This document shows, piece by piece, positions 55,122 through 57,873 of a DNA stretch of 64,000 nucleotides. The position numbers and the translations under genes are program-made. The notes under the pieces are model-generated. The model made no database searches. It worked only from the letters and a program-made list of their open reading frames with translations, and was not told the DNA's origin. Position 1 is the stretch's first letter, and the number at the start of each line of letters is the position of its first letter. This DNA comes from Vicugna vicugna (lineage: Eukaryota), in contig MU057833.1 of assembly GCA_013265495.1 (NCBI GenBank), positions 40,646 to 104,645 of the forward strand, given 5' to 3'.

Positions 55122-57873
55122 GGCGCGCCCCGCCCGCCGGCCTGCGCGGCGCGGGCTCCTGGGCTGTGGGACGGCGGCGCGCGCGGCAAAAGGATTGCAG
55201 AGTAAAGAACTTCATGAAACTCAGACATATGAAGCTGGTTTCCATGGGAACCTCGTCATCCCCTGATAACAGTTGTGACAGCTTTGCTTCTGATAATTTT
55301 GCTAACAACAAAACCTAAATTCAGGTCAGATCTCAGTGAAGCACTGGCAAATGTATTTTTACGAGGACTCTGATCATGAATCTTTCTGCTGCTTTTCAGA
55401 AAGTGAGGTGCAAGAGGTGTTAGACCGTTGTAGATTTTTTACAGAAACCAAGGCCAGATGTCACTAACGAACTAGCAGGTATTTTTCATGCCGACTCTGA
55501 TGCTGAATCATTTTGCGGTTTCTCAGAGAGTGAGACACAAGGTGGAACAGGCTGCAGGCAGACCGTGCTGGCTGCAGGATCCCCAGTCAGGGCAGGCGCT
55601 CCGGGCCTCTCCGGGTGGCCATGAAGTTTCCAGCTGGAAACACTAGGGGAGCAGCCAACAAAAGAGCAGAGCCCCCTGAACCCTCAGAGAATTCTGTGAC
55701 CGATTCCAATTCTGATTCAGAGGATGAAAATGGCATGAATTTTTTGGAGAAAAGGGCTTTAAATATAAAGCAAAGCAAAACAAAGCAATGCTTGCAAAAC
55801 TGATGTCAGAATTAGAAAGCTTCCCTGGTTCCTTTCCTGGAAGGCTTTCCCTGCCAGGCTCCAGTCCACGTCCAAAGACACCGCGGAGGCGAACATTCCC
55901 AGGTGCTGCGTGCAGGAGACACCCTGAGCGGAGAGCTCGTCCTCTCGCCAGTCCCTTGGCGCCCTACAGGAGGGGGAGGGGGAGAGGGAGGACGAGGAGG
56001 AGATGTTGGCGAGAAAGAGGAAGCCCGTGGACGGCTGCATGAACGAAGATGACATGCCCCGCAGTCGTCGTCCCGGATCCATGACCCTTCTCCCATCGCT
56101 CGCCCGGTGGAGGGAATCACGGAGGAAGCGTCGGAGCACATCTGCAACAGCTCTGGGGACAAGATCTACAACCCGTCACCGGGATCCACTTGTCATCAGT
56201 GCCGCCAGAAAACTACTGATACCAAGACAAACTGCGGAAAGCCAGAGTGCTGGGGCGTTGGAGGAATGATAATAAAAGGATGAATACAAGAAGCAGATAT
56301 CACTCTTATTAACATATATGCATCAAAATACAGGAGCACCTAGCCAGCTCTGCGGTCCCTGCCTCCGGAACCGTCACGGTGAAGAAGTCCGGGATGCTCT
56401 GCGAGACCCGAACTGTCACTGCCCGCCGTGGCGCAGGGGCTGCAATTGTAGCTTCTGTCGGCAGCGAGACAGGCGGTGTGCAACCCAGTGCTCCTGTACT
56501 TAGCCAAGTACCATGGCTTCGGGAATGGGCATGTGTACTTGAAACAAGAGTTTCAAAATAAGAGTTTGAAATGCAAGCATAATATATTGAAGATCTGCCT
56601 CCTGCTTTCCACTTCGAAAATCTTCCTTGTTAAAGTTTTCAATTTTGTCACGTGATTAAAATCCAAGTTAAGAATTTTGATGATCAGTCTGTCTTACAGG
56701 CAAATCAGGTTAATCTCATTAGACATGAGTGCATGTCTGGGCATCACAGAGGTACAGTGTGGGCTGCACTCTGCCCTCCTGCAGTCTCCCTCTGCTTCTC
56801 TCCCCACCCCTCACCCCATGCCACCCCCCTATTTCCAGTGGTTCTCTTCCATCATTTAGTTTCCGAGTTCCTTTTAAATGACAATTTTATGAAAGCGTGT
56901 TTGATTTAATTGGTGTTGAAATAGCCCGGGAATCCACCCGTAAAACCAAGCACTTGGAAACGCAGTAGTAGTGTTAACTACATCTATCGAATTCCAGAGA
57001 ATAACCGTCTAACTTGCTTACATGGAAACAGTAGGTCTGATTTAGTGTTCCTACTAGTTGACATTTTTAACAGAATCAAGGCACAGAAGTCTTAAAACTG
57101 TGTGGGAAAATTGGGTGATCGTTGACAAGTGGAGCACATGACACTGGAGGCCTCTCCTGATAGTACTCTGTGTGTGGTGCTTGTTATACAGGTGGTCACA
57201 GCTGCGACTTAGTTGCTGCTCGTTTGTTCCGTCATGTGCATCTGGTCCACACAGTCATGACCCAAAGGTCCTGGGCAAGGCTACACTTGAAATCATTGTA
57301 GAAAAGCCATCCTGGGGAACTGGGATGGACGCTTCAGGAATAGACCAATTTGAATTCATGGGATAAAACTTAAGTGTAACTATAGTTGCCAAACTTATTT
57401 CAGATCATAACATGAGGCATTTCAAATAAATTCTTGATTATGTTGCATGGGAAATCGATGCTTATACTCATCTACAATTCTTTGCAGGTCTTACTTTCTT
57501 GAAGAAATTGTAAGCTAGGCACAGGGTTTGAAGCACTTTTATAACGCTGAGAAGTGCCTTTTTGGAGAAGGGTGACTTTCAACAGTTGGCTAATGTAACA
57601 TCTCTGCCAGTTTAGCTTCTGGGAAGATTTCATGTGTCGTCTCTCCCTTCCCCTGTTTTGGCATAAATCAAATCTTTTGGTAGAGGTAGAATCTAAGTGT
57701 GTGTGTATGTATTTTGCTTTGCATGTGCAGCCAGTAGCCACGCCTGTTCGGTATTTTGGTGTATAACTGGACCTTGTATCAATAGCTGTAAATAGAGCTT
57801 TTGATCTGTTATGCTTTTATACAAAGTTTTTTATTTTAATAATAAAGTATTTTGTTCTACCTTAAAAAAAAAA
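55122..57873 (+). pseudogene. CDCA7: CDCA7 full-length processed pseudogene (long isoform)
   Basis: Reads [74 protein letters not shown], and the zf-4CXXC region [11 protein letters not shown]...[17 protein letters not shown]...[10 protein letters not shown]. Former CDS ~55166-56582, with frameshifts. AATAAA at 57841, A tail, TSD ctcaagc at 55115-55121 / 57874-57880. Confidence 0.96.

Follow-up and report, generated by a model that had tools for sequence, protein, structure and literature searches.

How did a short internal piece of an L1 element come to interrupt a CDCA7 retrocopy that itself lies in an L1, and what kind of event put it there? The piece was found in a 64,000-nt stretch of the Vicugna vicugna assembly (GCA_013265495.1, contig MU057833.1, forward-strand positions 40,646 to 104,645; hereafter the window, numbered from its first nucleotide), where a templated tract of 77 nt (54 A/T and 23 G/C) occupies 56266..56342 on the plus strand. 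A blastn comparison of 56265-56342 with the window aligned positions 56266-56342 to 58246-58322 at 75 of 77 bases (97.4%, E 1.3e-33), reproducing, from the assembly sequence only, the two-mismatch correspondence reported in the first-pass annotation of this DNA. Insert and donor are on the same strand in direct orientation, with the donor downstream at an offset of 1,980 bp, and the mismatches fall at 56276/58256 and 56295/58275. The second-best blastn match of the insert in the window, another L1 at 10444-10516, is 77% identical. As a control, the host L1 (57900-62000) was divided into 54 adjoining 77-nt tiles, whose best ungapped matches elsewhere in the window reached 39-64 of 77 positions, vs 75 for the donor tract, and among dispersed (non-tandem) window pairs of at least 24 nt and at least 90% identity the insert and its donor are the sole pair longer than 24 nt. 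The match is neither chance nor ordinary L1 family likeness. One other candidate local copy, 12195-12227 against 19531-19563, was rejected as (CT)n.

The acceptor is a CDCA7 processed pseudogene at 55122..57873 (plus strand), with an intronless coding sequence at about 55187-56560, several frameshifts and a presumed 3' UTR that carries AATAAA at 57841 and ends in an A10 tail at 57864-57873. A 7-nt TSD (CTCAAGC) flanks it, the left copy at 55115..55121 (plus strand) and the same 7-mer at 57874-57880. Searched for homologs, the interrupted frame gave its best matches to CDCA7 of Camelus and Vicugna; in a frameshift-aware alignment to the parent protein, 359 of 435 codons are identical to the camelid CDCA7 protein P0002 and 362 of 435 to P0003. 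The retrocopy is dead with or without the insert. One literature search found no paper on a CDCA7 pseudogene in camel. The host of the retrocopy is an L1 whose 3' part, comprising the right TSD copy, a decayed ORF2 and the 3' end, spans 57874..62061 (plus strand); it is 65-72% identical to other L1 copies of the window and has an endonuclease (EN) match and reverse transcriptase (RT, PF00078) homologs. The end of ORF1 and the spacer of the same L1 probably lie at 54562..55121 (plus strand), on the basis of a PF17490 match below the cut-off (E 0.015) and 58% identity to 39707-40007, with the alignment to three window copies, used to judge continuity of the L1 across the retrocopy, scoring within the shuffled range.

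The window has further features of its own. A GC-rich region (62-69%) at 49550-51800 on the minus strand holds a CRIC domain (PF10534, E 1.8e-10) and what we take to be PDZ- and PH-like motifs. It has the appearance of another processed pseudogene, derived from a gene of the CNKSR family by the name of the Pfam match. Tandem duplications occur at 14174-14619 (225 bp, 93.8%) and 28121-28692 (288 bp, 95.1%), and 63184-63963 is a degenerate internal repeat with a period of about 240 bp and 68-71% identity.

A local misjoin during assembly would also place two like tracts close together, and the insert junctions are known from the assembly sequence alone. Such an artefact is nevertheless extremely improbable, given that two substitutions separate the copies, a CG-to-CA change at a CpG and a site at which the insert keeps the ancestral base, and that there is no junction repeat to cause a misjoin. 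For 54600-58600, 417 words were sampled; 14 of the 24 runs listed, with four organism labels from six studies, contain 0.79-0.89 of them, which supports the locus in independent samples, though not the junctions, and one of these entries is possibly the assembly's own source.

The nature of the template can be read from the lesions that the two copies have in common. The donor at 58246..58322 (plus strand) comes from the interior of the L1, in the endonuclease region of ORF2, and its translation (P0122, with the stop written as X38) aligns to EN residues 76-117 at E 5e-11; a homolog search with the EN piece gave one match of seven candidates. The donor has an in-frame stop at 58261-58263, where a solved L1 EN protein has Ser, and an extra A in the run 58305-58308, which produces a +1 frameshift between INIYAS and NTGAPKYIKQ; the insert has the same stop and the same NTGAP frame. 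An autonomous L1 cannot carry such a stop and frameshift in ORF2. Since both are common to insert and donor, the template was the decayed local L1 and not an active one, and the donor remained intact, with L1 ORF2 continuous on either flank. In 53 of the 77 columns two other window L1 copies agree and so are informative: 44 are invariant, eight have a change common to insert and donor only (three W-to-S, four S-to-W and one W-to-W) and one has a donor-only change. Some of these eight apparently derived columns may be L1 subfamily characters, as Ser also occurs at the catc site in the related L1 fragment P0123; the bases had earlier been described as idiosyncratic to the two copies, and that description does not hold for all of them.

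It is highly improbable that the nearby match is incidental and that the true donor was a paralogue elsewhere, whether a segmental duplicate of the L1 or a member of a defective L1 lineage in which the stop and the frameshift are both present. The uniqueness of the donor was established within the 64-kb window, which leaves such a paralogue room, but the proposal calls for another copy that had decayed in the same pattern and leaves the 2-kb proximity to chance, and 824 of 1,136 human cases of local duplication in PMC2671141 had their donor within 5 kb.

The junctions were examined against the camelid CDCA7 protein. The frameshift-aware alignment gives a net gain of 79 nt as a single insertion at residue 377, where parent CDCA7 reads CWGVRGQFCGPC, and these 79 nt consist of the 77 templated nucleotides, an A at 56265 and one G at either 56264 or 56343. 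Aligned to P0002 and P0003, the insertion can be placed at 56265..56343 (plus strand), ambiguous by that one G. It lies in the zf-4CXXC_R1 coding region (PF10497), with Pfam positions 2-29 to its left and 34-82 to its right, so that the zinc-finger location proposed in the first-pass annotation was right and the size of 78 bp was not, as removing 78 nt would leave an empty site that is out of frame. Codon 377 is split by the insert; no codon or residue is lost, and there is no target deletion. The insert has a 1-nt filler on the left and one extra nucleotide on the right, and it ends in AG. Inspection of the junctions agreed with the earlier statement that there is no poly-A and no real TSD at the insert; at most one G is duplicated, and no 2-nt duplication is present at the junction. 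Microhomology amounts to 0 nt at both junctions, where the search gave just chance 4-mers, and the break ends have no 5-mer in common with the donor neighbourhood, although short homologies at the junctions may have been eroded by later substitutions. Two conventional origins were rejected on these grounds. A normal TPRT insertion disagrees with the lack of poly-A, TSD and 3' end and with the disabled source, and a retained parent intron or an exonised L1 disagrees with the splitting of codon 377 without loss of a residue and with the copying of the local L1's lesions.

The explanation that we favour, and consider probable, is a repair-mediated duplication (RD): the already dead CDCA7 retrocopy suffered a double-strand break in the germline, and the break was mended by DNA synthesis templated by neighbouring sequence. 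From the observed identity, orientation, size, common disabling changes, junction anatomy and relative age we infer a break, SDSA-like synthesis and an end-joining step. The L1 would have inserted and decayed, and CDCA7 mRNA would then have been retrotransposed into it; much later, a break would have arisen at codon 377 of the retrocopy, and one 3' end would have been extended on the L1 sequence that lies 1.9 kb downstream, using either the opposite resected end or a sister or homolog. After 77 nt had been copied, the strand would have been released and joined to the other end with one extra base per side and no target loss. The direct orientation fits a left 3' end primed on the resected right end, as in the model described in PMC7165422. 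The proposal of a locally templated, non-TPRT insertion of repair type was thus supported by the common disabling changes and by the lack of poly-A and TSD, and the insert is a functionless, neutral scar in a pseudogene.

Distance and junction structure bear on this repair reading from both sides. Mean mouse meiotic resection is given as about 1,100 nt (PMC13532658), and the distance of 1.9 kb exceeds it, which counts against repair on the resected end; invasion of a sister or homolog also works. In human cells, inserts come from resected DNA within 2 kb of the break and are joined in a DNA-PK-dependent manner (bioRxiv 2022.09.30.509517), with the caveat that the distance there is to the nearest cut site and not always to the acceptor. 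Germline MMBIR-type insertions are described with microhomology at 138 of 155 junctions (PMC8421209), unlike the CDCA7 insert, which has none.

The closest known class is that of the RDs of Pace, Sen, Batzer and Feschotte 2009 (PMC2671141), who reported 824 in human, 266 in mouse, 202 in cow and 192 in dog. As defined in that source, an RD has at least 50 bp, a donor within 5 kb, no poly-A, and filler, microhomology or a deletion at the breakpoint; the mean size is 162 and the maximum 619, and the donor lies within 3 kb in 753 of 1,136 cases. Measured against these values, the CDCA7 insert is within the size range (77 nt templated, 79 nt net; at least 50 and at most about 620 bp), its donor is intact and on the same chromosome at 1,980 bp (more than 50 bp and less than 5 kb), there is neither a poly-A/T tail nor a retrotransposition-type TSD, and the breakpoints have filler (1 nt on the left, one extra nucleotide on the right) without microhomology or deletion. 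The empty site is matched only by proxy, with the parent protein and not orthologous DNA as the reference, and the single donor is unique within the 64-kb window. The insert fits the RD class, with four of six features present, one by proxy and none contradicted. It is of the minority type without microhomology, which counts against the repair reading: in Table 1 of Pace et al., 8 of 39 proximal RDs are without microhomology and 2 of 39 are "filler only" (PMC2671141). The RD screen also differs in what it sought, namely sequence outside the TE consensus that interrupts a TE, whereas here a piece of L1 interrupts a pseudogene, and repeat annotation would record it as a short fragment of L1. The "doublets" of Thomas et al. 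(as cited in PMC2671141), near-identical local pairs of less than 100 bp for which imperfect break repair has been proposed, are likewise short, near-identical and local.

Other systems resemble the locus in part. Pol theta TINS, as described in PMC7165422, also copy AT-rich flanking DNA as direct repeats, but they measure 3-30 bp with primary tracts rarely longer than 10 bp, and they are primed by microhomology on a break-proximal template, in contrast to the one 77-nt tract copied here from 1,903 nt beyond the break end. Non-classical L1 insertions (Sen et al. 2007, PMC1920257) are L1 fragments without TSD or poly-A and with filler, like the CDCA7 insert; the elements of that set lie within 2% of a young consensus and have target deletions in 18 of 21 cases, whereas here the source was a local copy that was old and disabled, and none of the target was lost. 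Class 2 TSIs and TSIPs (PMC5110952) likewise have no TSD, no poly-A and non-templated bases, include partial L1 among their donors and measure 73-414 bp in experiments, but class 2 TSIP donors are distant and the donor here is 2 kb away.

The likeness to class 2 TSIs raises the possibility of an RNA template. Transcription from the CpG-rich 5' end of the retrocopy could have continued into the L1, and the resulting RNA could have been reverse-transcribed at the break, as a class 2 TSI or as endonuclease-independent L1 capture, and the insert strand is indeed the strand of such a transcript; experimental TSIs are moreover enriched for transcribed donors and lowered by RT inhibitors (PMC5110952). 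Five RNA entries hold 0.09-0.25 of the words of the locus, which may be parent mRNA or DNA carry-over and are no evidence of expression. With TSI donors being distant and not nearby (PMC5110952), the retrocopy's own AATAAA preceding the L1 and transcription of the donor hypothetical, we regard an RNA template as quite unlikely.

The relative age of the insert was estimated from the flanking pseudogene. The counts used 666 first and second codon positions at which the amino acid leaves just one possible parent base, excluding residues 1-10 and 439-454 and seven sites where P0002 and P0003 differ. The retrocopy has 52 changes in these 666 sites (7.8%), while insert and donor differ at 2 of 77. 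At flanking rates, the insert branch alone should have 6.8 changes against at most two seen (P 0.035); as the insert keeps the outgroup base at 58256, the count may be at most one (P 0.009). Adding a slow donor branch raises the expectation to 9.2 (P 0.005), and if a low rate is chosen on purpose for both branches it is 4.8 (P 0.15, not significant). Changes on the donor side after the copy amount to 1/10 or 2/11, where a coeval insert should show a share of about 0.4-0.62 (P 0.001-0.12). These comparisons argue that the insert is much younger than the retrocopy, with the test not conclusive under every model (P 0.15 in the most cautious). The host L1, which departs from the majority residues of 19 RT fragments at 14 of 112 positions (66 of 82 columns usable), is not significantly more diverged than the retrocopy (p=0.10), and the most likely order, judged from such sequence comparisons, would be L1, retrocopy, insert. 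With a borrowed primate rate of 2.2e-9 per year (PMC2671141), 2/77 (95% interval 0.3-9.1%) corresponds to roughly 6 million years (0.7-21). Of the seven sites that distinguish P0002 from P0003, the retrocopy matches P0003 at five and P0002 at two, which suggests that it predates the split of these two sequences and that an empty ortholog may exist.

Dating also bears on template switching, which had been offered earlier beside break repair. Were the switch to have occurred during TPRT of CDCA7 mRNA, with ORF2p passing to the target L1 and back, the insert would be coeval with the retrocopy. Orientation and proximity to the integration site suit this proposal, the donor lying 366 nt past the 3' TSD, and so does the cautious age model (P 0.15). 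The contrast between 2/77 and 52/666 disfavours a switch at the time of retrocopy formation, as does the finding that the insert has no A/T-to-G/C change in its 54 A/T sites where 5.3 are expected (P 0.005), and nearly all the decay of the donor is common to the insert. Later gene conversion between the 77-bp repeats would have to be added. A switch of this kind is therefore very unlikely.

The insert lies in a zone where A/T-to-G/C changes prevail. Between 55187 and 56530, and most strongly at 55940-56530 around the insert, substitutions in the retrocopy are biased from A/T to G/C. In its coding sequence, 34 of 344 A/T sites changed to G/C, vs 11 of 322 in the opposite direction (Fisher p=0.001), for an equilibrium GC of about 0.74; restricted to parent residues confirmed in at least three of five outgroups, the counts are 20/216 vs 7/202 (p=0.017). 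The bias is concentrated at 55940-56530 (19/142 vs 4/136, p=0.002), with 15/202 vs 7/186 upstream of 55940 (p=0.13). The host L1, taken as a control for the bias, gave 7/75 vs 3/37, too few to call. The changes are strand-symmetric, with 13 A>G, 11 T>C and 10 transversions, and A-to-I RNA editing was rejected as their source for that reason. CpGs are retained, the observed/expected ratio being 0.69 and 0.74 on the two sides of the insert vs 0.14 in the L1. The shift is the footprint of GC-biased gene conversion (gBGC-like), and the retrocopy has what is characteristic of such a tract, a strand-symmetric A/T-to-G/C excess with CpG kept in a CpG-rich stretch. gBGC at PRDM9-independent hotspots has been described in PMC11161765; the main text of that source makes no mention of camel, alpaca or Vicugna. 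At about 55943, the left edge of the most GC-biased zone and 320 bp from the insert, eight parent codons (24 nt) are missing, possibly another repair scar. At the ends of the retrocopy, comparison of 55110-55121 with 57869-57880 shows G, C and G on the left opposite A, A and A on the right beyond the exact 7-nt TSD, a difference that may reflect a TSD of greater length, changed by this bias, or nothing more than the poly-A tail.

The first-pass annotation had placed the insert in a GC-shifted patch and read this as consistent with a break hotspot. The patch is real, and the link to a break hotspot would need further grounds: the insert has 0 A/T-to-G/C changes against about 5 expected if it had been present for the entire biased episode, a deficit that dates its arrival to the last part of that episode or to a time after it, and the donor tract shows no bias, with three W-to-S vs four S-to-W. 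The retrocopy's gBGC-like footprint is arguably more notable than the insert. A more specific idea, which we hold tentatively and think doubtful, is that the CpG-rich DNA introduced by the retrocopy turned into a PRDM9-independent meiotic hotspot that persisted for long, and that the insert records one programmed SPO11 break there which was wrongly repaired, either by copying from the distal end of the resected tract or by capture of a double-cut fragment. PMC2671141 makes no mention of hotspots, meiosis or recombination rate and leaves a GC-biased setting unaddressed.

A capture of this kind would mean that two close SPO11 cuts freed about 77 bp of L1 on a sister chromatid or homolog, which were then ligated into a meiotic break in the retrocopy. 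Mouse SPO11 double-cut inserts of 15-349 bp with 0-2 nt microhomology (bioRxiv 2020.06.23.168138) and with a median of 67-95 bp (PMC13532658) agree with the size and the blunt junctions here (77 nt, 0 nt of microhomology), and the acceptor is within the GC-biased zone. The mouse inserts, however, come from hotspot sites and are found at deletions in ATM- or MRE11-deficient mice (bioRxiv 2020.06.23.168138, PMC13532658), while the donor tract here is without GC bias and there is neither a target deletion nor a 2-nt junction duplication, which makes double-cut capture unlikely. Such capture and RNA-templated repair likewise imply a local repair scar.

The insert is a real but ordinary break-repair scar; mammalian genomes contain hundreds of this kind, and by itself this one matters little, being neutral in an already frameshifted pseudogene. 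Its wider meaning lies in annotation and in timing. Some short annotated "L1 fragments" are local DNA copies and not products of retrotransposition, and RD screens would miss them. With donor, acceptor and parent gene all identifiable, the order of L1, retrocopy, GC-biased episode and insert is datable at one locus, which is thereby a data point on whether repair duplications cluster at meiotic hotspots. If the hotspot idea were true, and if across the genome the RDs of camelids proved to be enriched in such GC-biased tracts, RDs would for the most part be side products of meiotic hotspots.
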